Shown here piece by piece: positions 23,313 through 64,000 of a stretch of DNA of 64,000 bases. The stretch comes from Candidatus Lustribacter sp. (GTDB lineage: Bacteria; Vulcanimicrobiota; Vulcanimicrobiia; Vulcanimicrobiales; Vulcanimicrobiaceae): the NCBI GenBank assembly GCA_965277805.1, contig OZ255842.1, positions 224,001-288,000 of the forward strand, read 5' to 3'. Both the position numbers and the translations under genes were made by a program. Below the pieces are notes generated by a model. The model had not been told where the DNA came from, made no database searches, and saw only the letters and a program-made list of their open reading frames with translations. The first letter of the stretch is position 1; every line of letters starts with the position of its first letter.

Positions 23313-24280
23313 GCGAGAATTTTTTGCGCCGTCTCGCCGAGGATCATGCGTTTTTGCGCTTCGGTGAGGTCGGCGCAGCGGTTGATGAAGCCGACCGGAT
23401 CGGTTTCGCCGACCGCGTAATCCGAGCCGAGGGTTAGGCGTTCCGGCCCGAGGATCTTCAGTACTGACGTGAGGACGCCCGGGTCGTACACGCAGGTGTC
23501 GTAGAAGAAGCTCTTGAGATATTCGCTCGGCAAGCGCGACATGTTCTTCATGTTGCCGGGCATGTTCTTCGCATTCTTGTCGAGCCGGCCCACGTAGTGC
23601 GGGAAATAACCGCCAGCATGCGTCACGACGATCTTCAAGCGCGGAAAACGATCGAGCATGCCGTCGAAGATCATCGATGCGAGGAACTTTGCCTCTTCGA
23701 ACGAGACGCCGAGCGAGTTCCAGAAACCGTAGCGCTGGAACCAGTCGCATTTCGGGCCTTCCGGATGCATGAAAACGGCGACGTCGCGATCTTGGACCGC
23801 TTCCCAGAACGGCGCCCATGCCGGATCGCCCATATAGCTGCCGCGCACGTTCGAAGAAAGGTTCACCACGCCCAGTCCGAGATCGTCGACGGCCCGCGTA
23901 AACTCTTTGAGCGCCAGATCGAGATCTTGCAGCGGCAGCACGAAGCTGCCGATGATGCGGTTCGGATAGCGTGTCGCCCAGTCGGCAGCGACGTCGTTGA
24001 GGCGGCGGGTGAAGCCGTTCTCGACGGCGGGCTCCGCCCACGACGTCGGCGAGAGAACGGTCGTCGACGAAAGCACCATCTTTGTGATGCCCATGCGGTC
24101 CATGTCTTCGATGATGCGTTCGGGGTCTTGCATGTTGGCGAAATTGCGCACGATTCCAGGCGAAGCCGGATGCGCGCCGAAGCCGGTCGCCGGCGAGTGT
24201 TGATGGCACTGGTCGAGAACGTCCCCGACCATGTAGTGCGCGTGGAAGTCGATGACCGGTGAAGGTTCGGCGTTGTCCAT
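23309..24280 (-). CDS. Amidohydrolase_2 family decarboxylase/hydratase (ACMSD-like)
   Basis: IDFHAHY, VFMHP, LDRFPRLKIVVTHAGGYFP, FFYDT, LGSDY. Confidence 0.88.
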   Translation of the reverse strand: MDNAEPSPVIDFHAHYMVGDVLDQCHQHSPATGFGAHPASPGIVRNFANMQDPERIIEDMDRMGITKMVLSSTTVLSPTSWAEPAVENGFTRRLNDVAADWATRYPNRIIGSFVLPLQDLDLALKEFTRAVDDLGLGVVNLSSNVRGSYMGDPAWAPFWEAVQDRDVAVFMHPEGPKCDWFQRYGFWNSLGVSFEEAKFLASMIFDGMLDRFPRLKIVVTHAGGYFPHYVGRLDKNAKNMPGNMKNMSRLPSEYLKSFFYDTCVYDPGVLTSVLKILGPERLTLGSDYAVGETDPVGFINRCADLTEAQKRMILGETAQKILA

Positions 24281-24336
24281 GACCGCGCGTTTCGACGATA
24301 ATCGACACGTTACCGTTTGTCTGGAGTACGAGAAGA

Positions 24337-24864
24337 GTGCACGAATCCGAAAGAACCCGCGAACGCGAACGCGAACGTCCGCCGCTCAGTTCCTACGAGC
24401 TGGCGATCGCGCACGACAAAGAGTTCGCCGAGCGCCAGAACCTTGGGCGGGTCGTGATTCGCGAAGAAGATTGTCCGCAGCAGATGACGCGCCAAGGTCT
24501 GCTGCGCTTTTACCTGAGCCCGTTCGTCGTGCACGACACGCCGCTGCAGGATTGGTCCGTGTTCACCCACGAGATCCGCACGAAATCGGGCAAGCACCGC
24601 CATCAAGGCGGGATCATCATCTACGTCGTTGCGGGCAAGGGCCATTCAGTGGTCGACGGCGAGCGGATCAACTGGAAGAAGGGCGACCTCGTGCTGTTGC
24701 CGTTGCGGCCGAACGGGGTCGAGCACCAGCACTTCAACGACGATCCGGACAAGCCGTCGACGTGGATGGCGTTCGTGCACTTCCCGCTGCGCGACTACGT
24801 AGCTTCAGAACTCACGCAGTTGGAAGTCTCCGCCGACTACGCCGCGCAGGAGGCCGGCCGGTGA
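24337..24864 (+). CDS. Cupin domain protein (gentisate-dioxygenase-like half) with metal ligands
   Basis: SGKHRHQGGIIIYVVAGKGHSVVDG, WKKGDLVLLP, VEHQHFN. Confidence 0.85.
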   Translation: MHESERTRERERERPPLSSYELAIAHDKEFAERQNLGRVVIREEDCPQQMTRQGLLRFYLSPFVVHDTPLQDWSVFTHEIRTKSGKHRHQGGIIIYVVAGKGHSVVDGERINWKKGDLVLLPLRPNGVEHQHFNDDPDKPSTWMAFVHFPLRDYVASELTQLEVSADYAAQEAGR

Positions 24865-25382
24865 GCGATCGCAAGGAACGCCTGGCGCAGTCGAACTTCT
24901 GGGATAACATCCTGGCCCTGCGCGACGAACAGCGCGAGAACCGCAAGAGCGGCATCCAGGTGATCGAAGAATCGGAGCTCCCGCTCGAAGTCAACCGTCA
25001 GGGCTTGATGCGCTGGTATCTGCATCCGGACATCAAAGACACGCTGCTCACGACGCATCTGTTCTTTTCTCAGGAGATCCCGCCCGGTAGCCGCTCGGGC
25101 CGGCTGAAGTTCCAAGGCGAACAGGTGATGTTTATCGTGGAGGGCAGCGGCTATACGCTGCTCGACGGCGTGAAGCATCCGTGGAAGGCCGGCGACGTGC
25201 TCAATTTGCCGTTGCGAAAGCCGGGCATCATCGTTCAGCACTTCAACACGGATACTGAGACGACGGCGAAGTTCATCGCGGTCGAGCCGAACTTTCTCGC
25301 CTGCGCGAGCGTCGATCGCGGCAGCGGGTTCGAACAGCTGGAGGATGCGCCGGAGTACGTGCGGACGAAACAGTCCCCATGA
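24861..25382 (+). CDS. Cupin domain protein, paralogue lacking the motif-1 histidines
   Basis: GTG 24861 (GTGA overlap); SGRLKFQGEQVMFIVEGSGYTLLDG, WKAGDVLNLP, VQHFN. Confidence 0.85.
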   Translation: MSDRKERLAQSNFWDNILALRDEQRENRKSGIQVIEESELPLEVNRQGLMRWYLHPDIKDTLLTTHLFFSQEIPPGSRSGRLKFQGEQVMFIVEGSGYTLLDGVKHPWKAGDVLNLPLRKPGIIVQHFNTDTETTAKFIAVEPNFLACASVDRGSGFEQLEDAPEYVRTKQSP

Positions 25383-53526: not shown

Positions 53527-54522
53527 ATGGCCAACGTAGCTGAGAGCCTGGCGGAAACTGCAGTCGACCGGTCGGAGTGGACGATCACCTCGACGTGCCG
53601 GCGGTGCCGGGCGGCGTGGAATCTCGCGCCCAGCGTCATCGGGACCGCCAAGGACGGCAAGGCGTTTTTCCGGCGGCAGCCCGAGACGGAAGAGGAACTC
53701 AGCGAAGCGTGGCGCGCCTTGGTGGCGTGTCCGACCGGTTCGATCAAAGCGCCGCACGGGCTGCCGCTGCCGAACGACGTGTTTCCGCAACTGCTGGCCG
53801 AGAATCTTTGGCGCCTCGGATACAACGACAACAGCAGTGCCGGCGCGCATCCGTTTTTCATTCGCGCGAAGAGCGGCCTGAACTTCATGGTCGACGGTCC
53901 GCGCTTCGTGCCGAAGCTGGTGAAGTTCATCGAAGAGCAGGGCGGGCTCGATCACGTGCTGTTGACGCACCGCGACGACGTCGGCTCGGCCGCGAAATAT
54001 GCCGAACATTTCGGCGCGCGATTGTGGATCCACGAGAATGACCGTGCGGCGGCGCCCGAAGCCACCGACATCCTGACCGGCTACGAGATCACCGAACCGG
54101 TACCGGGCTGCACCGTCATTCCGATTCCCGGCCACACGATCGGCAGCGTGGCGTTTCTCATCGATGAGAAACTGTTTCCCGGCGATTCGCTCGGCTGGGA
54201 ACTCGCGCAAAGCCAGCTGTGGACGAATCCGATTTTTTGCTGGGATGACTGGCCGATGCAGGCCCGCGCGCTGCGGCGGCTGCAAGCCTTCCGCTTCGAT
54301 TACGTGTGCTCCGGCCACAACTACAGCATTGGATTCCCGGCCGACCGCATGAAGGCGGAGTTGGACAAGGCGCTCGATTTCTTCGATACGCTCACGTGGA
54401 CGCCGCCGACGCATCTGCCGACCGGCGAGGCGATTCCTGCGGCGCGCATTCAAGAACGCGATCGCCGCGTCGCGGAAGTTCGCGCCGACTTTTTCGCGAC
54501 GCTCGAGCGCGAACAGGCTTGA
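53527..54522 (+). CDS. Ferredoxin-like N-domain fused to MBL-fold hydrolase
   Basis: TCRRCRAA...ALVACPTGSI; LTHRDD, PGHTIGS, FPGDSL, CSGH; GGAGG RBS. Confidence 0.85.
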   Translation: MANVAESLAETAVDRSEWTITSTCRRCRAAWNLAPSVIGTAKDGKAFFRRQPETEEELSEAWRALVACPTGSIKAPHGLPLPNDVFPQLLAENLWRLGYNDNSSAGAHPFFIRAKSGLNFMVDGPRFVPKLVKFIEEQGGLDHVLLTHRDDVGSAAKYAEHFGARLWIHENDRAAAPEATDILTGYEITEPVPGCTVIPIPGHTIGSVAFLIDEKLFPGDSLGWELAQSQLWTNPIFCWDDWPMQARALRRLQAFRFDYVCSGHNYSIGFPADRMKAELDKALDFFDTLTWTPPTHLPTGEAIPAARIQERDRRVAEVRADFFATLEREQA

Positions 54523-55469
54523 TGCACGTTTCGCGGCGTCACGCGCTGGCGGCCCTCGCTGCTGCCGGCAGCGTGCCGTATTTGGGGCGGCCGGCTGCGG
54601 CCGATGGGCCGGCGATTCGCGTCGGCATGATTCCCATCGAGTCGGCCTGCGGCGCCTTTTATGCGAAGGAAAACGGGTTCTTTCAAAACGCCGGCGTGAA
54701 CGTCGAGATCGAGCTCAACCCATCGACGCCGGCGATTGCGTCGGCCGTCGTTGCCGGTACGTACGATATCGCATTCAGCGGCATTTCGACGCTGGCAGCG
54801 GCGCATGCGCGCGGGCTGCCGTTCGTCCTCATCGCGCCGTCGGGCATCATCGCGCCCGGTACGGTCTCGGGTGGGATAACGGTCGCGCCGCAATCGCCGA
54901 TCCGTACGGCTACGGACCTCAACGGCAAGACGTTCGCGGCTTCGGGTCTCAACACGCAAGCGGAGTACTCGCCGCGCGCGTGGATCGACAAGCATGGCGG
55001 CGATTCGACGACGTGCAAGTTCATCGAGATGCCGTTTCCGCAGATCGCCGACGCGATCGCGGCCGGCCGCGTCGACGCCGGCTATTTGGTCGAGCCCTTT
55101 CTCACCGTGGCGAGCAAACGCGGCGTCGTGCGCACCATCGCCAGCGGCGACGACGCGATCGGAACGACCTTCCTCGCCAGCGGCTGGTTTGCGCTCGCCG
55201 CATGGGCGAAGGCGCATCCCGACGCCGTGGCGGCGTTCGCAAGCGCGGTTGGTCAGGCGGGGCACTGGGCCAACGCGAATCCGGATAAAGTCGTACCGAT
55301 CATCGCGGCGCACCTCAAGACCGATCCGGCGGTGACGGCCGCGGTTCCACGCACGCTCTACACGGATCGTCTGATCGCCGCGCAGGTTCAGCCGTGGATC
55401 GACGTCACCGCGAAGTACGCGAAATTCCCGTCCTTTGCCGCCGCCGACCTGATGTACCGCCGGTCATGA
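54522..55469 (+). CDS. ABC substrate-binding protein, SsuA/TauA/THI5 family (Tat)
   Basis: SRRHAL; GFFQNAGV, DLNGKT, WIDKHGGDS, IEMPFPQ, AGRVDA. Confidence 0.9.
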   Translation: MHVSRRHALAALAAAGSVPYLGRPAAADGPAIRVGMIPIESACGAFYAKENGFFQNAGVNVEIELNPSTPAIASAVVAGTYDIAFSGISTLAAAHARGLPFVLIAPSGIIAPGTVSGGITVAPQSPIRTATDLNGKTFAASGLNTQAEYSPRAWIDKHGGDSTTCKFIEMPFPQIADAIAAGRVDAGYLVEPFLTVASKRGVVRTIASGDDAIGTTFLASGWFALAAWAKAHPDAVAAFASAVGQAGHWANANPDKVVPIIAAHLKTDPAVTAAVPRTLYTDRLIAAQVQPWIDVTAKYAKFPSFAAADLMYRRS

Positions 55470-56638
55470 ACGTGCGCATCGTCGCCGCAGCGGCGCTTGC
55501 GCTCGGCGTGCTCGGGCACGCTACGAGGCTCGGCGCGGCCGACGTGGTGCCGGTCGAGTTCAACATGATCCTCTCGACAACCGGCGCCGCCGCGGTCGCC
55601 GGCGTTCCCGTCAGCCAAGGCGTGCGGGTTCTCGAGCAGATGGTGAATGCCGCCGGCGGCGTCAACGGGCGCCCGGTGAAGTTCAACATCCTCGACGATC
55701 AGTCGAGTCCGCAGATCGCCGTGCAACTCGCCAACGACCTCATCGCAAAGAAGGTACCGGCGATCCTCGGCCCGTTGTCGACCGCCTCGTGCGGCGCGGT
55801 CGCGACGCTGGTGGAAAAGAGCGGCCCGCTGATGTACTGCGTCAGCCCGTTCATCAAGCCGGCGATCGGCGGCTACGTGTACGCCGGCGGACCGGCCGAC
55901 ATCGACGGCGCGGCCGTCGTGCTGCGCTACTTCCGCGAACGCGGCATGACGCGCTTCGCGATGCTCAACTCGACCGATGCCAGCGGCCAGGCGCTGGATA
56001 ACGCCTTCGTCGAGGCCTTCGCGTTGCCGGAAAACAAAGGGATCACGCTCGTCGCGCACCAGCACTTCGCGCCGAGCGCAACGAGCACGTCGGCCCAAAT
56101 CGCGGACATCAAGGCGGCCAACCCCCAAGTCTTGATCAGCTGGATGATCGGCGCGCCGTTCGCGACGGTTTTGCGCGGCGCGCACGACGGCGGACTCGAC
56201 GTCCCGATCGTGACCAACGGCGCCAACGGATCGGCGGCCTTCATGACGCAAGTCGCGTCGTTCTTGCCGAAGGAGGTCGACTTCGCGTCCTATCCCGCTT
56301 CGCTCGCGAGCGCCGCGAGCAAAGGCATCGCCGCCGCTCAAGCCGCGCAAACGAAAGCCTTCGAAGCCGCGCACGTCAAACAAGAAGGCAACGCGATGGG
56401 CGCCTGGGATCTCGCGCTGATCATGGTCGATGCGATGCGCCACCTGCCCGCCAACGCGACGGCCGACGATCTGCGGGCCTACATCAACAAGCTGCAAGGC
56501 TTTGCCGGTACCAACGCGATCTACAACTTCCGAACTTACCCGCAGCGCGGCAGCGGACGCGACGGGAACATCATGGCGCGTTACGATCCCGCGACCAACG
56601 CATTCATCGCGATCAGCAAACCGGGCGGCGGCAAATGA
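55466..56638 (+). CDS. ABC substrate-binding protein, LivK family
   Basis: NAAGGVNGRPVKFNILDDQSSP, TDASGQ, GAPFATVLR. Confidence 0.9.
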   Translation: MNVRIVAAAALALGVLGHATRLGAADVVPVEFNMILSTTGAAAVAGVPVSQGVRVLEQMVNAAGGVNGRPVKFNILDDQSSPQIAVQLANDLIAKKVPAILGPLSTASCGAVATLVEKSGPLMYCVSPFIKPAIGGYVYAGGPADIDGAAVVLRYFRERGMTRFAMLNSTDASGQALDNAFVEAFALPENKGITLVAHQHFAPSATSTSAQIADIKAANPQVLISWMIGAPFATVLRGAHDGGLDVPIVTNGANGSAAFMTQVASFLPKEVDFASYPASLASAASKGIAAAQAAQTKAFEAAHVKQEGNAMGAWDLALIMVDAMRHLPANATADDLRAYINKLQGFAGTNAIYNFRTYPQRGSGRDGNIMARYDPATNAFIAISKPGGGK

Positions 56639-57858
56639 CGCAGACGTCAACGATGGTGCCGGTGCAAGGCGGTTACGTACCGCGTTTCTCGCTCGCCGAA
56701 CGCGACCGGCGCTGGAAACGCGTGCGCGAACTGATGGCAGCCGATAACATCGATTGCATTTTCGTGCCGCCGAACACCGGGCACTGGGACACGTTTCAAG
56801 CCAGCGGACGATACTTAACCACGCTCGGCGGTAACAACGCGCAAGTCGCGACGATCTTCCCGCACACCGGTGACGTCACGGCGATCTCGAGCCCCGACAT
56901 CGCGCCGGCGATTTGGCACGCGCGTCAGGACTGGCTCCAGGACATCCGCTCGGCGGGCAGCGGCGGCGGCTGGGGTTACACCGACCACGTCATCGCGCGC
57001 ATTAAAGAACTCGGCCTCGAACGGGGACGCATCGGCATCGTCGGCCTCGAAGGCAATACGCGCTACCCCGAGGGCGTCTTCTCGCACGGCATGTACGAAA
57101 AACTGCGCGCCGCCTTACCCGGCGCGCAATTCGTCAACGGCAACTTCGTTCTCGAACGCGCGCGCTTCGTCAAGAGCGCGGAAGAAATCGCCATCATGGA
57201 GCAGGGAATCGCGCTGACAGAAGGCGCGCTCGACGTCCTGCGCGCCGAGGCGAAGCCGGGCGTGCCGGAGTGCGTCGTCTACATGCGTCTGCTCGCGAGC
57301 ATGGTCGAACGCGGTGCCGAGCTGCCCAGCATGATTCTCTGGTCCGCCGCGTGGCCGCAGTCGCCGTCGAACTACTACATGCCGACGCAGCGCCCGCTCG
57401 CGCAGGGCGACATGATCTCGATCGAGCTGGAAGCGCGCGTTGCCGGCTACAATGGCCAGGTCACGCAGGTCGCCTTCATCGGGGAGCCGCCGCGCGAGTA
57501 TCAGGAGATGTTCGAGCTGCAGCAGCGCGCGGTCGCCCGCTGTTACGAACTGCTGCATCCTGGTTCGATCATGGGCGACTTCGTCGAAGCGATGAAAGAC
57601 TTCGAAAATGCGGACTACACCGTTCGCCTGATCATGCACTGCCGCGGCCTCGGTGACGACTCGCCGATCTGCATCGGCGAATTCCGCGACGAGATGATGC
57701 GCACGTGGCCGATCGAGGTGGGCGCGACCTTCATCGTCAAGCCGGTGATCTTTGCCCGCGAAGGGTTCCGCCGGCTCTACTGGGGCGACACCGTCGTTGC
57801 AACGGAGACCGGTGCGCGCCGTCTCGGCTCGCGCAAACCGGAAATCATGCGTCTATGA
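56635..57858 (+). CDS. M24/creatinase-fold hydrolase
   Basis: FSLAERDRRW, RFVKSAEEI, GDMISIE, HCRGLG, GDTVVATETGARRL. Confidence 0.85.
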   Translation: MTQTSTMVPVQGGYVPRFSLAERDRRWKRVRELMAADNIDCIFVPPNTGHWDTFQASGRYLTTLGGNNAQVATIFPHTGDVTAISSPDIAPAIWHARQDWLQDIRSAGSGGGWGYTDHVIARIKELGLERGRIGIVGLEGNTRYPEGVFSHGMYEKLRAALPGAQFVNGNFVLERARFVKSAEEIAIMEQGIALTEGALDVLRAEAKPGVPECVVYMRLLASMVERGAELPSMILWSAAWPQSPSNYYMPTQRPLAQGDMISIELEARVAGYNGQVTQVAFIGEPPREYQEMFELQQRAVARCYELLHPGSIMGDFVEAMKDFENADYTVRLIMHCRGLGDDSPICIGEFRDEMMRTWPIEVGATFIVKPVIFAREGFRRLYWGDTVVATETGARRLGSRKPEIMRL

Positions 57859-59069
57859 AACGTTCCATCAGGAGGCTGCCCTTCGTGAAAGTTCTGATCA
57901 GCGCGATGCTTACGCTGGTGCTCGCCGTTTCTGCCGATGGTCCGGGCGGCGCGCAGACGGCAACCGGCGCGCCGTATACGATCGATGCGATCCTCGAGCT
58001 CTCCGGCTCGAACGCGTTTACGGGCGAAATCTATGCGACGTCGCTGAAGATCTACGAGACGTACGTCAACGCGCACGGCGGCATCAACGGCCGGCCCGTG
58101 CATTTCAACCTGCGCGACGACGCGACCAATCCGCAGACGGCCGTGCAACTCGCGTCCGATACGCTCGCGAAGCATCCGGTGGTGTTCTTCGGCGGCGGCA
58201 ACACCGGGTCGTGCGCGGCGATCGCGCCGATGGTGAAAGACGGACCGGTCGACTATTGCATCTCGCCCGGATTCTCGCCGGACAAGGGAAGCTACGCGTT
58301 CGCGACGTCGCCGTCGTTGAAATCGATCGTGTCGGCGATCCTCGCGTACTGCCGCAGCCATGGATTGAAACGGCTGGCGCTGATTTCGGCGATCGACGCC
58401 ACCGGCAAGGCGTCGGAACAAGTGCTGACCGAGTTGCTCGACCTTCCGGCCAACCACGATCTGATGCTGACCACGAACCAGCACTTCAATCCGGCCGATC
58501 TCAGCATCGCCGCCCAAATCACGCAAGTGGCGGCTGCGAAGGCCGACATCGTGCTGTGCTTTGCGGGCGGAACGCCCTTCGGAACCGTGCTGCGCAGCCT
58601 CAACGACGGCGGCGTGCACCTGCCGGTCCTCACGTCGTCGGCGAACATCAACCGCGTCCAGCTCGATCAGTACAAGAGCTTTCTCCCGCCCCAGCTGATC
58701 TTCAACGGACCGATCTTCGAGATGGCGGATCAAGTCGGCGACCGCGGGCTGCGTGATGCCGTGAACGCCCTGTATTCCGCATACAAAGCGGCCGGCGCGG
58801 AGCTGAGCCCGCAAAGCGGCTTCGCCTGGGATCCGGCAGCGCTGGTCGTTTCGGGCCTGCGCAAGCTCGGGCCGTCGGCGACACCGCAGCAACTGCGCGA
58901 CTACCTGCTCGGCCTGCGCAAATATCCCGGCGTGAACGGCTCCTACGACTTCTCGATCGGCGACCAGCACGGGCTCGGGGCCGACTCGCTGGTGTTCGTT
59001 TCGTGGGATCCGAACACGCGGAACTTCTCCCTCGTCAGCGGGCCCGGCGGCTTGCCGCTGCGCCGTTAA
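57855..59069 (+). CDS. ABC substrate-binding protein, LivK family
   Basis: NAHGGINGRPVHFNLRDDATNP, GTPFGTVLR, GVNGSYDF. Confidence 0.9.
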   Translation: MKRSIRRLPFVKVLISAMLTLVLAVSADGPGGAQTATGAPYTIDAILELSGSNAFTGEIYATSLKIYETYVNAHGGINGRPVHFNLRDDATNPQTAVQLASDTLAKHPVVFFGGGNTGSCAAIAPMVKDGPVDYCISPGFSPDKGSYAFATSPSLKSIVSAILAYCRSHGLKRLALISAIDATGKASEQVLTELLDLPANHDLMLTTNQHFNPADLSIAAQITQVAAAKADIVLCFAGGTPFGTVLRSLNDGGVHLPVLTSSANINRVQLDQYKSFLPPQLIFNGPIFEMADQVGDRGLRDAVNALYSAYKAAGAELSPQSGFAWDPAALVVSGLRKLGPSATPQQLRDYLLGLRKYPGVNGSYDFSIGDQHGLGADSLVFVSWDPNTRNFSLVSGPGGLPLRR

Positions 59070-59087
59070 AAACGATAGGATACCAGC

Positions 59088-59732
59088 ATGAACGCAAAGC
59101 CCAAGATCACGACGATCGAAATCGAGGACTCGCTGGACAAGCTCGACGACTGGGATTTCTTCGCGGAGAAGGTTGTCGGCAAGTTCTCGGGGTTCAAAGC
59201 TGCGTCGGGCAATATTCTCGGCATTCGGCGCCGCATCATCGATCGCGATTCGGTGTACGACGAGAAGAAGGGCCCGCACCCGCACACCTTCGAGCTCTCG
59301 CCCACCGGCATCGAGACCATCAGCTTCAAGCCGATGAACTTCCATGTGACGCACGCCGGCACGCCGCATCGCGTCCCGCACAGTTTCGGTTACTGGCACA
59401 TCAACGATCTCGACGAAGTATATCTCGCGATCCCGGCGCCGGAAGGTGAAGAGCGCGGCCACTTCGTCGTCGTCATGCAGAAGCCGGCCGGCAAAGAAGG
59501 CGAGAGCTTCGCCTGGTACTGCGAAGAGTGCTTGACGCTGTTCGATGAGTACCGTTTCAATCACGGCGAGCTCGGTCTCACCGAATTTTGGCGCGCGGAA
59601 ATGCAAGCCGTCGCTCAGCACAACGCCAAGGACCGGACGTGTCCCGAATGCGGGCACGCGAATCCTCTCGCCTACACCTGGAATACGGTGAAAGATACGC
59701 CGGAGCTCACGGCTGCCCGTCACCACTGGTGA
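59088..59732 (+). CDS. Cupin-like protein with HAO-type rubredoxin (CxxC...CxxC) C-terminus
   Basis: HAGTPHRVPHSFGYWHINDLDEVY; WYCEEC...RTCPECGHANP. Confidence 0.72.
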   Translation: MNAKPKITTIEIEDSLDKLDDWDFFAEKVVGKFSGFKAASGNILGIRRRIIDRDSVYDEKKGPHPHTFELSPTGIETISFKPMNFHVTHAGTPHRVPHSFGYWHINDLDEVYLAIPAPEGEERGHFVVVMQKPAGKEGESFAWYCEECLTLFDEYRFNHGELGLTEFWRAEMQAVAQHNAKDRTCPECGHANPLAYTWNTVKDTPELTAARHHW

Positions 59733-60301
59733 GCACGTCGCCGCAACTGCCGGTCCTCGGGTTCGACTTCCCGCTCGACGCGCCCAATGGTTGGCATGAA
59801 GCGAACCGGTATCTGCTCTACGCCGGACACTTCGCGCTCGATGCGCCGCCGATCGCCCTGCAAGAATGGCTCGGCTCGGGTAGCGAGACGGTGCCGGCGC
59901 GTCACCGGCAACTCAGCATGGTGCCGGCCGGTACGCCGCACCGGTTGACGCACTTGGCCGGGTTCTGGCGTGAGTCCGACGCCGACTTGATCGTGCTGCG
60001 CGCCGTGCTGCCGGAAGCGTTGTACATCGCGCTGTACGTTTCGTCGGGACCATCGCATCACTACGATCGGATCTGCTGGTACTGCAATAAATGCGGTACG
60101 AAACTCGCGCCGTGGACCTACAACGTCGAGCGCTTCGGCGCGCTGTCGTTCTGGGAGAAGCTACTCGAACCCGTGCGCGCCTTCAATGCGGACGCTGCGC
60201 AGCGGACGTGTCCCGCGTGCGGGGCCGTGCATCCGTTAGCTTACGGCTTCGACGCGGCGGACGATACGAGCGAAGAGCGGGCCGCGCGGGCGAGCTGGTA
60301 A
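59729..60301 (+). CDS. Paralogue of the upstream gene; HAO-type rubredoxin tail, putative non-catalytic subunit
   Basis: GTG 59729 (GTGA overlap); PAGTPHRLTHLAGFWRESDADL; WYCNKC...FNADAAQRTCPACGAVHP. Confidence 0.72.
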   Translation: MSTSPQLPVLGFDFPLDAPNGWHEANRYLLYAGHFALDAPPIALQEWLGSGSETVPARHRQLSMVPAGTPHRLTHLAGFWRESDADLIVLRAVLPEALYIALYVSSGPSHHYDRICWYCNKCGTKLAPWTYNVERFGALSFWEKLLEPVRAFNADAAQRTCPACGAVHPLAYGFDAADDTSEERAARASW

Positions 60302-60305
60302 CGCG

Positions 60306-61112
60306 CTACTCGGCGCTCCAGCCGCCGTCGATCGGAATCGCGGTGCCGGTGATCGAGCGCGCGGCATCGCTGCACAGGTAGGCGCAGAGGGCGCCGACCT
60401 CGAGCGGATCGATGAACTTTCCCGTCGGCATCTTACTCAAGAACGCGCGCTTGAGCGCCTCTTCCTCGGAGATGCCGCCGCCGTACGACGTCGCCAGATC
60501 CTTGGCTTGTCCGGCGATCAGATCGGTGTAGACGGCGCCCGGACAAATCGCGTTCGCGGTCATCCCCGCTTCGGCGCCTTCGAGCGCGGTCGCTTTGGTG
60601 AACCCGACGACACCGTGCTTCGATGCGATGTAGGCGGATTTGAACGGCGAGGCGATTAGACCGTGGATGCTCGAGATGTTGACTACGCGCCCGTGCCCGC
60701 AGGCGACGAGATGCGGCCAGGCAGCCTTCGTGAGATGAAAGACCGAGTCGAGATCGACCGAACGCACGCGTTCCCAATCGGCATCGCCGAACTCGGCGAT
60801 CGGTGCGACGTACTGCACGCCCGCGTTGTTGACCACGTGATCGATCGCGCCGAAGTCGGCCGCGATGCGCGCAACGCCGGCGCGCACGTCATCCGGCTTC
60901 GTCACGTTGATCGCGTACCCGCGTGCGCGAACACCATACTCGGCAGCAAGTTTCGCGGCCGAGGCGGACGCCGTCGCTTCATCGAGATCGCAGATCGCGA
61001 CGTCGGATCCGGCGGCCGCGAGCGCCGTCGCGCAGGCGAAGCCGATGCCGCGCGCGGCGCCGGTAACGACGCTCACGCGACCGGCAAGGCTCAGGCTGGG
61101 AAGCGCGTTCAT
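60306..61112 (-). CDS. 3-hydroxybutyrate dehydrogenase-like SDR
   Basis: TGAARGIG, NNAGVQYVAPIAEF, SSIHGLIASPFKSAYIASKHG, IDGGW. Confidence 0.88.
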   Translation of the reverse strand: MNALPSLSLAGRVSVVTGAARGIGFACATALAAAGSDVAICDLDEATASASAAKLAAEYGVRARGYAINVTKPDDVRAGVARIAADFGAIDHVVNNAGVQYVAPIAEFGDADWERVRSVDLDSVFHLTKAAWPHLVACGHGRVVNISSIHGLIASPFKSAYIASKHGVVGFTKATALEGAEAGMTANAICPGAVYTDLIAGQAKDLATSYGGGISEEEALKRAFLSKMPTGKFIDPLEVGALCAYLCSDAARSITGTAIPIDGGWSAE

Positions 61113-61459
61113 TTCTTGCTGTAGTAGCGCACTTCGAACGTAACGCAGCCTTCCGGGCTGCGCCAGGGTCCGTGACGCATGCCCGGCGGGCGGCACGCAT
61201 ATTCGCCCGCGCGGAACGTCTGCTTCAGCTCGAGATCTTCGAACGCGCCTTCGAGGATGTAGACCTCTTCCCAGAAGTCGTGCACTTGCACGCCGTTCGG
61301 CGTCGTGTCGCAGCCGGGCGGAAACGTGAGGATGCGGGTGGCGACGTTGGCGTCGGGGTCCTTTGCGAGGATGCGCTCCGTCATGCCGACGTCGGCGCCC
61401 GCGACCTTCGTCCACGGGATCGTCGTCACGGGGAAAAATTCGTGTTCGGGTTTGGCCAT
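61109..61459 (-). CDS. ChrR-like cupin domain protein
   Basis: VHDFWEEVYILEG, YACRPPGMRHGP; GGAG RBS before ATG 61459. Confidence 0.85.
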   Translation of the reverse strand: MAKPEHEFFPVTTIPWTKVAGADVGMTERILAKDPDANVATRILTFPPGCDTTPNGVQVHDFWEEVYILEGAFEDLELKQTFRAGEYACRPPGMRHGPWRSPEGCVTFEVRYYSKK

Positions 61460-61460
61460 G

Positions 61461-62102
61461 TCACTCCACTGAGTATTCGAACGTAAGGGGATGGGCGAGC
61501 GGACCGCCGCTGATGCGGGCCGCGAAGGTCTTGCCGAAGCGAAAGCCGTGCGTGAGCAGCGGCACGGTGCCGCAGAACAGCACGAAGTTTGCGTTGCCCT
61601 TGCGCTCGCGCAAACCGGCCAGCAGCGTCGCGAGCGGCACGATCTGCGCGAACGTGCCGCGCTGATAGGGTTCGCCGTCGATCGTGCTCTCGAGCGCGAT
61701 CGCATCGAGCGCGGCATCGGGCGCGCCGATGCGGACGACGTTCTTGCCGACGGGCTTGGGGCAAATGCTCTTGCTCTTCGAGATGCTCTCGCGTTCGACG
61801 TCGCGCGCGGTGTGATCGCTGCCGAGGCCGAGATAGAGATCGTTGCCGATGCCGATCAAGATCGGCTCGACTTCGCCGCACGTCTCTTTGGTCGGCACGC
61901 TGATGCTCGACGCTTGGGTGAGAATGCCCACCGGCATCTCGTACCACATCGGCACCTCGGGCGGGGCCGGAATGCCCTCGTGCGCGAGCTCGTCGATGTG
62001 TTTCTGCACCATAGCGCGATCGCGGCCGGTGTACCCCGCGATGATGAAAACCTCGGGCTCGCATCGAATCTGTCGCTGTTGTTCGTCGGTGAAAGTCAGC
62101 AC
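61461..62102 (-). CDS. DUF2848 family protein
   Basis: IIAGYTGRD...HIDELAHEGIPAP, GEVEP, GSDHTARDVE, SKSICPKP, LFCGT. Confidence 0.85.
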   Translation of the reverse strand: MLTFTDEQQRQIRCEPEVFIIAGYTGRDRAMVQKHIDELAHEGIPAPPEVPMWYEMPVGILTQASSISVPTKETCGEVEPILIGIGNDLYLGLGSDHTARDVERESISKSKSICPKPVGKNVVRIGAPDAALDAIALESTIDGEPYQRGTFAQIVPLATLLAGLRERKGNANFVLFCGTVPLLTHGFRFGKTFAARISGGPLAHPLTFEYSVE

Positions 62103-62235: not shown

Positions 62236-62922
62236 ATGGGGGCGGTGATTGTAACGGGCGGAGCAGGCGGACTCGGAACGGCGATCGTCGCCGACCTGCG
62301 GGCGAACGGCCGCACGGTGGTCTCCTTCGACCGCCAGGCTGCATCAAGTGCTTCCGCGTCGTTTCAACTCGACGTGGCCGATGAAGCCGCGGTCGGCGCG
62401 CGCGCAAACGAAGTTGCCGAACGCTACGGCGGCATCGACGGTCTCGTGTGCGCGGCCGGCACGGTGGCGGAACATCCGGTTGCCGAGATGCCGCTCGCGG
62501 CGTGGCGCAGCGTGATCGATGCATCGCTGACCGGCACCTTCGTCGCCACGCGCGCGGTACTGCCGGCGATGATCGCTGCCGCCCGCGGCAGCATCGTCGC
62601 CTTTTCTTCGGGCTACGCAACGACCGGTTACCGCAACGGCGCGAACTATGCCGCAGCCAAAGCGGGCGTCGAGGCGCTGATCAAATCCGTCGCGCTCGAA
62701 AACGCGCAGTACGGCATCCGCGCGAACAGCGTCGCGCCCGGCCCGATCGACACGCCGATGCTCACGCCCGAACGCGCGGCGTTCATCGGCCCGCGCATTC
62801 CGCTCGGCCGCGTGGGCACGCCGGCCGACGTCGTCGGGATCGTCCGGTTCCTAATCGGCGATGAGGGCGCGTACATTACGGGACAAACCATCGGGGTCAA
62901 CGGGGGCTTGATCATGCAATGA
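62236..62922 (+). CDS. Short-chain dehydrogenase/reductase (FabG-like)
   Basis: VTGGAGGLG, YAAAK, NSVAPGPIDT, YITGQTIGVNGG. Confidence 0.9.
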   Translation: MGAVIVTGGAGGLGTAIVADLRANGRTVVSFDRQAASSASASFQLDVADEAAVGARANEVAERYGGIDGLVCAAGTVAEHPVAEMPLAAWRSVIDASLTGTFVATRAVLPAMIAAARGSIVAFSSGYATTGYRNGANYAAAKAGVEALIKSVALENAQYGIRANSVAPGPIDTPMLTPERAAFIGPRIPLGRVGTPADVVGIVRFLIGDEGAYITGQTIGVNGGLIMQ

Positions 62923-64000
62923 GTACTCGCGCAACGCAGGTGCCGGCTTGGGCACCGAAGATCGATCCGTCACGCTGGGTCGACAACCGTGTCTACACCG
63001 ATCCGCACGTCTACGAGCGCGAGACCGAGCGCATCTTCATGCAAACGTGGCTGTTTGCGGGCCACGAAAGCGAAGTGCGCAACGCCGGCGACTACGTGAC
63101 GCTGAGCTTGCTCGAGCAGCCGTTGATCCTCGTGCGCGGCAGCGACAACGTGGTGCGCGCGTTCTACAATACGTGCCGCCATCGCGGTTCGCGCGTGCTG
63201 CTCGATGATTGCGGTCATGCCGCTGCCTTCCGGTGTCCCTATCACTTCTGGTCCTACGACCTCAGCGGCAACCTCATCGGCGTGCCCGGTGAAGAAGCGT
63301 ACGACGGCAGCGGCTTCGTCAAAGAAGAGAACCCGCTCGTCGGCGTGCGCTGCGAAGTGGCGCTCGGCCTCGTGTTCGTGTGCTTCAACCAGCAGGCGCC
63401 GCCGTTGCGCGACTATCTCGGACCGAAGGTGATCGAGACGCTCTCGACGCCGCTCGCCAACGCGGATTTCGAAGTCGTGAAGTACTACGGCTACGAGATG
63501 CCGATCAACTGGAAAGTGTTTGCCGAGAATGCGCGCGACGGTTATCACGTGCCGTTCGTGCACCCGTTCTTCCGCAAAGCGAGCCCGCCCGGGCCGTATT
63601 ATCTCTTCGAGGGCGGCCACGCCGTGCAAACGCTCGGCATGGACCCCACCGGCATCGAACCCGAGCTGTGGGTGCGTTTGCAAGAGCACACGTTGCCCGG
63701 CGTCGAGACTGGCGACGGCTACATCGTCACGCTGTTTCCCGATGCGACGATCACACTGCGTTCGAACGTGATCTCGATCGATTCGCAGCGTGCGCTTGGG
63801 CCGAAAAAGGTGCGCATGGAGAGCCGCGTGCTCGGTCTGCGCGGCGATTCCGAGGCGGTTCGCGAAGTGCGCGCGCTCGGTCACGCAACGTGGTTCCTCA
63901 ACCCGGTCGAACTCGAGGACGGGCCGATCTTCGTCGGTCAGCAAGAAGGCGTGGCTGCGCAAGGCGTTCGCTACAGCGTGATCGCGCGCGGCGCCGACGC
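62919..64000 (+). CDS. Aromatic ring-hydroxylating Rieske dioxygenase alpha subunit (runs off the window edge)
   Basis: Not in the ORF track; hand translation from ATG 62919: VYTDPHVYERETERIF..W, FYNTCRHRG...CPYHFWSY, NWKVFAENARDGYHVPFVH. Confidence 0.93.
   Translation, partial: MSTRATQVPAWAPKIDPSRWVDNRVYTDPHVYERETERIFMQTWLFAGHESEVRNAGDYVTLSLLEQPLILVRGSDNVVRAFYNTCRHRGSRVLLDDCGHAAAFRCPYHFWSYDLSGNLIGVPGEEAYDGSGFVKEENPLVGVRCEVALGLVFVCFNQQAPPLRDYLGPKVIETLSTPLANADFEVVKYYGYEMPINWKVFAENARDGYHVPFVHPFFRKASPPGPYYLFEGGHAVQTLGMDPTGIEPELWVRLQEHTLPGVETGDGYIVTLFPDATITLRSNVISIDSQRALGPKKVRMESRVLGLRGDSEAVREVRALGHATWFLNPVELEDGPIFVGQQEGVAAQGVRYSVIARGAD

Follow-up and report, generated by a model that had tools for sequence, protein, structure and literature searches.

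Two overlapping genes at positions 59,088 to 60,301 of a 64,000-nucleotide stretch of DNA from Candidatus Lustribacter sp. (contig OZ255842.1, positions 224,001 to 288,000; the whole stretch is called the window below) encode a pair of proteins, here named alpha and beta, which belong to an unannotated and unnamed protein family and are distant relatives of 3-hydroxyanthranilate 3,4-dioxygenase (HAO, or NbaC). The two probably form a heterodimeric, HAO-derived non-haem iron enzyme in which alpha is the catalytic and beta the structural subunit. To the further proposal that this enzyme is the terminal component of an oxygenase fed by a ferredoxin and a reductase, we give about an even chance.

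The conservation of individual residues was assessed in 81 distinct alpha open reading frames (ORFs) and 62 beta ORFs from 65 public loci, found by peptide patterns including WH[IV]NDxD. The counts in the following list of features refer to this set.

59088..59732 (+): alpha gene, 214 amino acids; ATG start with AGGA upstream; HAO-like cupin barrel, then a C-terminal four-cysteine (Cys4) ribbon; putative catalytic subunit
59352..59381 (+): alpha residues 89-98, HAGTPHRVPH; resembles cupin motif 2; H94 in 81/81, H98 in 69/81
59397..59417 (+): alpha residues 104-110, HINDLDE; His-x5-Glu hairpin like motif 1 of HAO, placed after the motif-2-like segment; H104, N106, D107 and E110 in 81/81
59520..59531 (+): first CxxC of alpha (C145, C148); 81/81; aligns with WYCxxC of HAO
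59640..59651 (+): second CxxC of alpha (C185, C188); 81/81; aligns with the second CxxC of HAO
59729..59732 (+): GTGA overlap, seen in the sequence itself; beta starts within the stop of alpha (translational coupling)
59729..60301 (+): beta gene, 190 amino acids, as in its relatives; GTG start; alpha paralogue without the His/His/Glu trio; putative non-catalytic partner
59924..59989 (+): beta residues 66-87, PAGTPHRLTH ... WRESDADL; degenerate counterpart of the alpha metal segment
60083..60094 (+): first CxxC of beta (C119, C122); 62/62
60209..60220 (+): second CxxC of beta (C161, C164); 62/62

Paralogy of the subunits and their relation to HAO

Alpha and beta are paralogues whose similarity lies far above chance. 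BLASTP aligns them with 32% identity over 144 residues (E 5e-25), and comparison of the two family alignments by hhalign gives a probability of 99.9 (E 4e-36). A preliminary description of this DNA, made from the sequence alone, had listed the motifs AGTPHR, WYCxxC, FW, RTCPxCG..PLAY and DT.E..AAR..W as common to both copies; all of them were verified, as were the gene coordinates, the start codons and the GTGA overlap. No Pfam or NCBIfam model reaches its cut-off on either protein. The Pfam scan returned sub-threshold zinc-ribbon matches only, with no PF06052 match at E <= 1 and no match to any Cupin model. A word-indexed search recovered 182 relatives of alpha and 47 of beta, most of them named “hypothetical protein”; no HAO or cupin Pfam family is present in any of them, and PF13458 occurs in a single alpha relative, the fused or merged form P0026. 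A profile search run exhaustively over 1.84 billion cluster representatives yielded 147 matches at E <= 1e-3, fragments and beta types included; true HAOs were among them, matching profile positions 118-192 with E values of 4e-7 to 4e-4. ESM Atlas features pointed to no named family, none of them exceeding 0.82. Two alpha-like proteins with H94, H104 and E110, P0221 (284 amino acids) and P0212 (272 amino acids), carry an extra N-terminal domain of approximately 85-100 residues without a Pfam match.

The HAO model PRK13264 of NCBIfam matches the last 60-80 residues of alpha (25.7 bits, E 9e-6) and beta (31 bits, E 2e-7) at scores far below its cut-off of 220, and TIGR03037 gives 19.9 and 22.9 bits, respectively, against a cut-off of 145.95. 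By score, neither protein is a member of the HAO family, and in sequence the kinship, though real, is confined to 75-80 residues at the C-terminus. When the family profiles were compared with all Protein Data Bank (PDB) sequences, HAO was the only significant match (beta E 1e-6, alpha E 2e-6), with nothing else at E < 0.001. AlphaFold2 models were obtained with a predicted local distance difference test (pLDDT) of 84.4 for alpha and 91.1 for beta. In VIA alignments, the alpha model superposes on the HAO chain 5v26_A at Z 8.5 (root-mean-square deviation 4.2 Å, 142 aligned residues, ranges 7-194 and 1-171) and the beta model at Z 9.5 (3.0 Å, 136 residues, ranges 7-170 and 1-171), while the next non-HAO structures follow at Z 4.3 and 5.7. 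In both models the cupin barrel and the C-terminal lobe are superposable on solved HAO, and the four cysteines align with the HAO cysteines in the CxxC ... CxxC arrangement. The top 18 Foldseek matches are likewise all HAO chains, at template modelling (TM) scores of merely 0.37-0.52.

Because HAO is the outstanding fold match but the TM scores are low, the similarity extends beyond a zinc ribbon, yet the two proteins are not ordinary HAOs. The preliminary description had proposed an HAO-related family with N-termini unlike those of HAO, to be given up if the resemblance proved to be that of a generic zinc ribbon or, conversely, if the proteins aligned collinearly with ordinary HAO over their full length. 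The proposal stands: HAO is the sole standout solved fold and the sole significant PDB profile match, both models match HAO at the level of the barrel, the family scores lie far below the cut-offs, and the N-terminal parts cannot be aligned confidently with HAO in sequence.

Compared with HAO (PF06052, TIGR03037, PRK13264; PDB 1yfu, 5v26, 1zvf), the alpha-beta family shares the succession of a cupin barrel and a WYCxxC ... RxCxxCG four-cysteine site, and the putative metal residues of alpha agree with those of HAO in type (two His, one Glu) and in the His-x5-Glu spacing. It differs in the position and order of these residues, in an extra N-terminal arm and helix, in the presence of two distinct subunits of which one lacks the metal site, and in its link to a Rieske ferredoxin; the residues of the HAO substrate site are not recognisably kept. 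Eukaryotic HAO also combines an active and an inactive cupin unit, and the human (5tk5) and bovine (3fe5) structures match the alpha model at Z 6.9 and the beta model at Z 7.5. There, however, the two units are domains of a single chain, whereas alpha and beta are products of two genes with a Cys4 ribbon on each. The source genome holds two true PF06052 genes elsewhere (G000:C1:2245853-2246299 and G000:C1:466615-466953, the locus L012 7516-8046), one of them canonical (E 3e-51), the other divergent (E 6e-21) and situated between RidA/L-PSP and Peripla_BP_6 genes. No kynurenine-pathway genes were found among the neighbors of the inspected alpha-beta loci.

Metal residues and the order of the cupin motifs

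Besides the residues marked in the list, R47 is invariant in all 81 alpha ORFs, and D58 (69/81), K61 (68/81) and E69 (65/81) are partly kept. In beta, the positions corresponding to H94, H104 and E110 are occupied by His in 18 of 62 ORFs (position 71), by His in five (position 81) and by Glu in none (position 87), and the full trio is found in 0/62. The beta copy of the window reads WRESDADL, with H104 replaced by R and E110 by L, as the preliminary description had noted. Conservation in beta lies elsewhere: D86 and H168 are invariant (62/62) along with the four cysteines, and W22 and E46 are invariant or nearly so. The representatives from the exhaustive search, which are free of pattern bias, show the same distribution, with His/His/Glu in 34 of 38 alpha-type and 0 of 47 beta-type sequences covering the region. 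Since the trio is kept in alpha types and never complete in beta types, alpha has a candidate 2-His-1-carboxylate site that is missing from beta, as judged from sequence conservation.

The iron ligands of HAO are His51, Glu57 and His95, and an alignment of HAOs (A3) shows the order H51, E57, H95 to be invariant. In alpha the order is H94, H104, E110, and no alignment places the conserved His/Glu/His residues on the three HAO columns. Likewise, cupin motif 1 should precede motif 2, whereas the PxGxxH-like segment of alpha (residues 89-94) precedes the His-x5-Glu segment (104-110). This bears out the earlier observation that PHRVPHS (residues 93-99) comes before WHINDLDEVY (103-112). In a gapless profile-profile scan, alpha 103-115 was placed on HAO 50-62, with H104 on H51 and E110 on E57, at z 5.3 (next best z 1.9). 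The preceding segment, alpha 84-100, was placed on HAO 85-101, with H94 on H95, at z 3.9, the collinear placement on 67-83 ranking third at z 2.9; beta 59-77 was placed on HAO 83-101 at z 3.2. In the strand lists of the models, the first tight hairpin is preceded by two strands, and three more lie between the segment of H94 and the WYC strand, where we take HAO to have four and one. Finally, in the predicted heterodimer, alpha residues 42-46, 83-90, 111/113/115 and 125/127/129/131 present one face to beta, an interface that in the model fits a B-I-D-G sheet with strand 110-115 replacing strand D.

Taken together, the profile scan, the strand counts of the models and the predicted interface favor a transposition: the His-x5-Glu hairpin has probably moved from before to after motif 2, in a non-circular manner. 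To our knowledge, no strand transposition of this kind has been described for cupins. Of the “permuted HAO-related family” proposed in the preliminary description, the kinship to HAO is upheld, and the reversed motif order and the movement of a strand are probably right, but a circular permutation of HAO fits no reading of the data. Three points weigh against the transposition or qualify it. The hhalign registers against HAO conflict between alpha and beta upstream of the last barrel strand, for which HMMER profiles back the alpha register; when hhalign was run with alternative alignments, the His-x5-Glu segment received no further significant placement. The strand lists are also compatible with a wholly collinear reading, in which the strands of beta are shifted against those of HAO by a nearly constant offset, and the structural aligners used are sequential and report collinear ranges. 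A collinear barrel with migrated ligands, in place of a moved hairpin, is a possible alternative.

Partnership of the subunits and proposed electron supply

Of the 81 alpha copies, 50 have beta directly downstream on the same strand and 66 have it within 3 kb; the carriers include Eremiobacterota, Alpha-, Beta- and Gammaproteobacteria, Actinomycetota, Bacillota (Paenibacillus), Chloroflexota and Binatia. The source genome contains five alpha and four beta copies at four loci, that is, four pairs and a fifth alpha. Among 151 sampled genomes of its phylum, alpha was present in the window's own genome only and was missing even from a genome of the same genus (G145); the family is a patchily distributed accessory trait. 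The source genome measures 5.5 Mb, its listed relatives in the family and genus 2.3-4.4 Mb. A tree of every second adjacent pair (24 of 50), the pair of the window and nine HAOs was computed by a quick method without bootstrap. Alpha and beta each form one clade (Shimodaira-Hasegawa-like approximate likelihood ratio test (SH-aLRT) value 95) and are jointly set apart from HAO (100); their subclades mirror each other, and the longer branches of beta indicate faster evolution.

Complex prediction, in a run that included iron ions, gave an alpha-beta heterodimer with an ipSAE of 0.86 (0.79, 0.86 and 0.87 in separate runs), against 0.00 for the best of three controls, with a pLDDT of the partners of at least 89 and at least 82% of contacts shared between runs. 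In a calibration without ions or user alignments, 116 of 157 solved complexes attained this ipSAE mark, as did two of 215 mismatched pairs. In the model, the N-terminal arm of alpha (residues 2-10) contacts E46, residues 63-66, T69 and H71 of beta, the remnant of the beta site. The conserved pair, the distribution of metal residues over the two subunits and a heterodimer model far above its controls agree with the catalytic plus structural heterodimer of the preliminary description, which had suggested co-occurrence of the pair as a check.

Bacterial HAO is a homodimer, and alpha might similarly work alone or with itself while beta is a decaying, functionless duplicate. The faster evolution of beta, the 15/81 alpha copies without beta within 3 kb and the excess of alpha over beta copies in the source genome would fit such a decay. 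Part of these lone alpha copies lie at contig ends, however, and beta is retained as an intact ORF beside alpha in at least six phyla, keeps its Cys4 site, D86, W22, E46 and H168 invariant or nearly so, mirrors the alpha tree and passes the controls of the heterodimer model, all of which renders a functionless beta highly improbable.

A second association links the pair to electron-transfer proteins. Counts were made with hidden Markov models from our own ORF clusters, and Rieske or Rieske_2 domains were confirmed by Pfam. An ORF for a small Rieske ferredoxin follows directly after beta on the same strand, ending 700-1400 nt past the alpha stop, in 34 of the 81 copies, and such a ferredoxin is present within 6 kb in 50 of them. 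In addition, Rieske domains are fused to alpha or beta in at least three lineages: beta-Rieske fusion ORFs were found in an uncultured actinomycete (L066), in Amycolatopsis (L081) and in P0247, P0346 and P0347, and in P0177 (Brevibacillus) a Rieske domain precedes an alpha that has H94, H104 and E110. Reductases of the Pyr_redox_2/Reductase_C type occur within 6 kb of five copies (Caballeronia, Streptomyces, Paraburkholderia, Trinickia, Amycolatopsis), and an FNR-type reductase follows the cassette in L070 (Bradyrhizobium). Four loci (L070, L074, L076, L077) hold an alpha-beta-ferredoxin(-reductase) cassette without any Rieske oxygenase. The source genome encodes two ferredoxins of the family type at other loci (674771-675133 and 4018194-4018670), the second between beta and alpha. 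At the locus L011 10191-10586 (-) of this genome (G000:C1:4018191-4018586) the order is MarR, Peripla_BP_6, beta, Rieske ferredoxin, alpha, with a divergent M24 hydrolase alongside.

The link between a Rieske ferredoxin and the alpha-beta pair is new here; a full-text search, with subscription journals mostly outside its coverage, found no paper on a cupin-Cys4 protein working with a Rieske ferredoxin. Three-component Rieske non-haem iron oxygenases such as biphenyl or toluene dioxygenase consist of a reductase, a Rieske ferredoxin and a terminal oxygenase, and electron-donor genes of these kinds, for a small Rieske ferredoxin and for a reductase of the Pyr_redox_2/Reductase_C or FNR type, are found near the alpha-beta cassettes. 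Alpha and beta are, moreover, two distinct subunits with a candidate 2-His-1-carboxylate site, and the Rieske-alpha fusion P0177 has the domain order of a Rieske oxygenase alpha subunit. In contrast to these terminal components, alpha and beta are paralogous to each other, their activity is putative, and they consist of a cupin and a Cys4 ribbon without Ring_hydroxyl_A or SRPBCC domains, a Rieske domain occurring in the fused forms only. PicB, a four-component 6-hydroxypicolinate monooxygenase, was considered as an alpha-beta system and rejected, as PicB1-4 resemble classical Rieske oxygenase components according to a preprint (10.1101/530550).

We propose a mechanism in which a heterodimer of two HAO-like subunits, each with a cupin barrel followed by a four-cysteine ribbon, would hold a mononuclear non-haem iron in alpha by the 2-His-1-carboxylate set H94, H104 and E110. 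R47, aided by R49 and K61, would grip an anionic substrate; a substrate such as a carboxylate is suggested because R47 is invariant and stands with these two basic residues. Beta, having lost the metal residues, would serve as a scaffold and as a docking or relay subunit. Electrons would pass from NAD(P)H via a flavin reductase to the small Rieske [2Fe-2S] ferredoxin and then, probably via the Cys4 metal sites, to the iron of alpha. The complex would thus be the terminal component of a multicomponent oxygenase performing hydroxylation or oxidative demethylation rather than self-sufficient ring cleavage, and neighboring binding proteins and an M24 hydrolase would serve substrate uptake and further breakdown. 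Of the elements of this picture, the paralogy, the HAO-like fold, the pattern of conservation, the pairing of the genes and the adjacency and fusion of ferredoxins are observed, whereas iron binding by the trio, iron in the Cys4 sites, the route of the electrons, the type of reaction and the nature of the substrate are inferred. In its most specific form, in which a cupin iron site is fed by a Rieske ferredoxin and reductase through a rubredoxin-like Cys4 site, a catalytic subunit is paired with a dead paralogue and the His-x5-Glu hairpin is transposed past motif 2, the proposal of a new class of multicomponent oxygenase is a tentative one.

Several observations weigh against this mechanism. 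No Rieske ferredoxin or reductase adjoins the pair of the window itself, and reductases adjoin merely six of the 81 copies. Rieske oxygenase genes lie within 6 kb of 15/81 copies, and some of the ferredoxins could in truth serve their products. Sequence does not reveal which metal the Cys4 sites bind, and it may be structural zinc. That H94, H104 and E110 meet at one site is presumed, and the complex model may lean on solved HAO homodimers. Because the search patterns include WH[IV]NDxD, they account for part of the invariance of H104, N106 and D107; neither H94 nor E110 figures in these patterns.

Turnover of extradiol dioxygenases needs no electron supply, and the pair could be such an enzyme: a heterodimeric, HAO-related ring-cleavage dioxygenase whose Rieske ferredoxin only re-reduces accidentally oxidised iron. 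HAO, the closest known relative in fold and sequence, is itself a ring-cleaving enzyme, the alpha-specific His/His/Glu set matches its ligand types, aromatic-catabolism genes (LigB, intradiol dioxygenase, FAD monooxygenase, dienelactone hydrolase) are present at several loci, and many copies, that of the window included, have no adjoining ferredoxin. A precedent for the arrangement of a small ferredoxin gene beside an iron dioxygenase-like gene is given by the plant-type [2Fe-2S] ferredoxins of the XylT type, which reactivate extradiol dioxygenases (catechol 2,3-dioxygenases). However, the ferredoxin of the alpha-beta loci is of the Rieske and not the plant type, and we know of no case in which XylT is fused to its client or brings its own reductase. 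Two independent kinds of Rieske fusion and dedicated reductases in compact cassettes look, rather, like a stoichiometric electron supply. The loss of recognisable HAO substrate-site residues and the low scores of the HAO models also speak against ring cleavage. Because of the ferredoxin adjacency, the two kinds of fusion and the nearby reductases, an electron-consuming enzyme is favored over an extradiol dioxygenase, which we regard as unlikely; for the ring-cleavage dioxygenase acting on aminophenol or pyridine rings, as first suggested for this pair, no evidence was found. Division of labor between a catalytic and a non-catalytic subunit encoded by adjacent genes, as proposed for alpha and beta, is known from the ring-cleavage dioxygenases AmnAB (2-aminophenol 1,6-dioxygenase), LigAB and PnpCD (hydroquinone dioxygenase); these, however, belong to other folds or families (LigB type; PnpD is a cupin without a Cys4 ribbon) and have no dedicated ferredoxin.

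It is improbable that the pair is no oxygenase but another class of cupin (isomerase, decarboxylase, lyase or hydrolase) or a redox or metal-handling protein, with structural zinc in the Cys4 sites and ferredoxins that are merely co-located with true Rieske oxygenases in catabolic islands. Cupins catalyse many types of reaction (PMC12746152), the recurrent partners of the pair are hydrolases and binding proteins, and both the nearby Rieske oxygenase genes and the ambiguity of the Cys4 metal are compatible with this explanation. Against it stand the Rieske domains fused to beta or alpha themselves, the four cassettes that have ferredoxin(-reductase) genes without a Rieske oxygenase, and the conserved residue set, which is of the classic O2-activating 2-His-1-carboxylate type. 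The preferred reading therefore remains the electron-fed oxygenase with a catalytic alpha subunit, at the strength given at the outset.

Genomic neighborhood and significance of the family

In the window, the pair stands at the end of a row of same-strand genes. The creatinase-like hydrolase and three solute-binding proteins of the preliminary description were recovered by Pfam as an M24/Creatinase_N, two Peripla_BP_6 and one NMT1 protein. The upstream order is a small-ferredoxin-like/metallo-beta-lactamase-fold protein, NMT1-type, Peripla_BP_6, M24/Creatinase_N and a second Peripla_BP_6; downstream of beta, a short-chain dehydrogenase gene lies convergently on the opposite strand.

53650..54522 (+): first gene of the row; Fer4_13-like single-cluster ferredoxin segment and metallo-beta-lactamase fold (weak Pfam matches)
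54522..56638 (+): NMT1-type and another Peripla_BP_6 binding-protein gene in the same-strand row (Pfam)
56635..57858 (+): M24 / Creatinase_N hydrolase, Pfam E 8.6e-15 and 4.5e-7; recurrent neighbor of the family
57855..59069 (+): Peripla_BP_6 binding protein immediately 5' of alpha, Pfam E 6.6e-33; N-terminus resembling a signal peptide

Judged by its domains, the product of the first gene could be a local redox partner of the window's pair, which has no adjoining Rieske ferredoxin. Peripla_BP_6 genes also flank the alpha-beta pair at all three other loci of the source genome. Further downstream (61112-61420 (-), 61464-62102 (-) and 62919-63998 (+)) the window encodes a ChrR-like cupin (Cupin_7) and a DUF2848 protein along with two short-chain dehydrogenases, followed in this enumeration by the first part of a Rieske ring-hydroxylating alpha subunit, and it represents a dense catabolic island. 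At 24252-25379 (+), a 376-amino-acid ORF spans the region that the preliminary description had given as cupins at 24337; it has no Pfam match at E <= 0.001, and the next gene is acyl-CoA-dehydrogenase-like.

Across the 81 alpha copies, the most frequent neighbors within 6 kb are NMT1 binding proteins (48), M24 hydrolases (43), Luciferase-like monooxygenases (34), NMT1_3 (TAXI-like) proteins (26), Peripla_BP_6 proteins (17) and Dienelactone hydrolases (13). Regulators of the MarR, IclR, LysR, TetR and AraC types and transporters of the major facilitator superfamily or ATP-binding cassette type were found as well. Judged by this neighbor content, the alpha-beta loci appear to be catabolic cassettes. 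A precedent for a methionine-aminopeptidase-like hydrolase in the breakdown of ring products is LumW, a cobalt-dependent pyrone hydrolase described in PMC12746152; by analogy, it offers only a hint to the role of the M24 hydrolase. NMT1_3 genes lie inside several alpha-beta-ferredoxin cassettes (L076 8581-9576, L077 8597-9559, L074 5465-6445, L062 8311-9273, L052 8602-9555). Their products show, by eye, no signal-peptide-like N-terminus and may be cytoplasmic components rather than transport receptors. The C-terminus of the alpha homologue P0121 (238 amino acids), ...PLHPGAEAYYREHGY..., resembles the conserved C-terminus of these NMT1_3 proteins and may reflect a fusion, a frameshift or an assembly join.

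The electron-fed oxygenase designs of bacteria that we can name are few: the Rieske, soluble di-iron, P450 and flavin types. If the proposed mechanism is true, a further design would join them, in which a Rieske ferredoxin serves a cupin that has a rubredoxin-like relay, and the puzzling second metal site of HAO-type proteins would have a purpose. The pair would also provide a clean example of an enzyme/pseudo-enzyme heterodimer and possibly of the relocation of a metal site inside a conserved fold. Peat and soil bacteria carry as many as five copies of this unnamed family, and its carriers in culture include Paraburkholderia, Bradyrhizobium, Methylocella, Streptomyces, Amycolatopsis and Paenibacillus, which makes it accessible to experiment.

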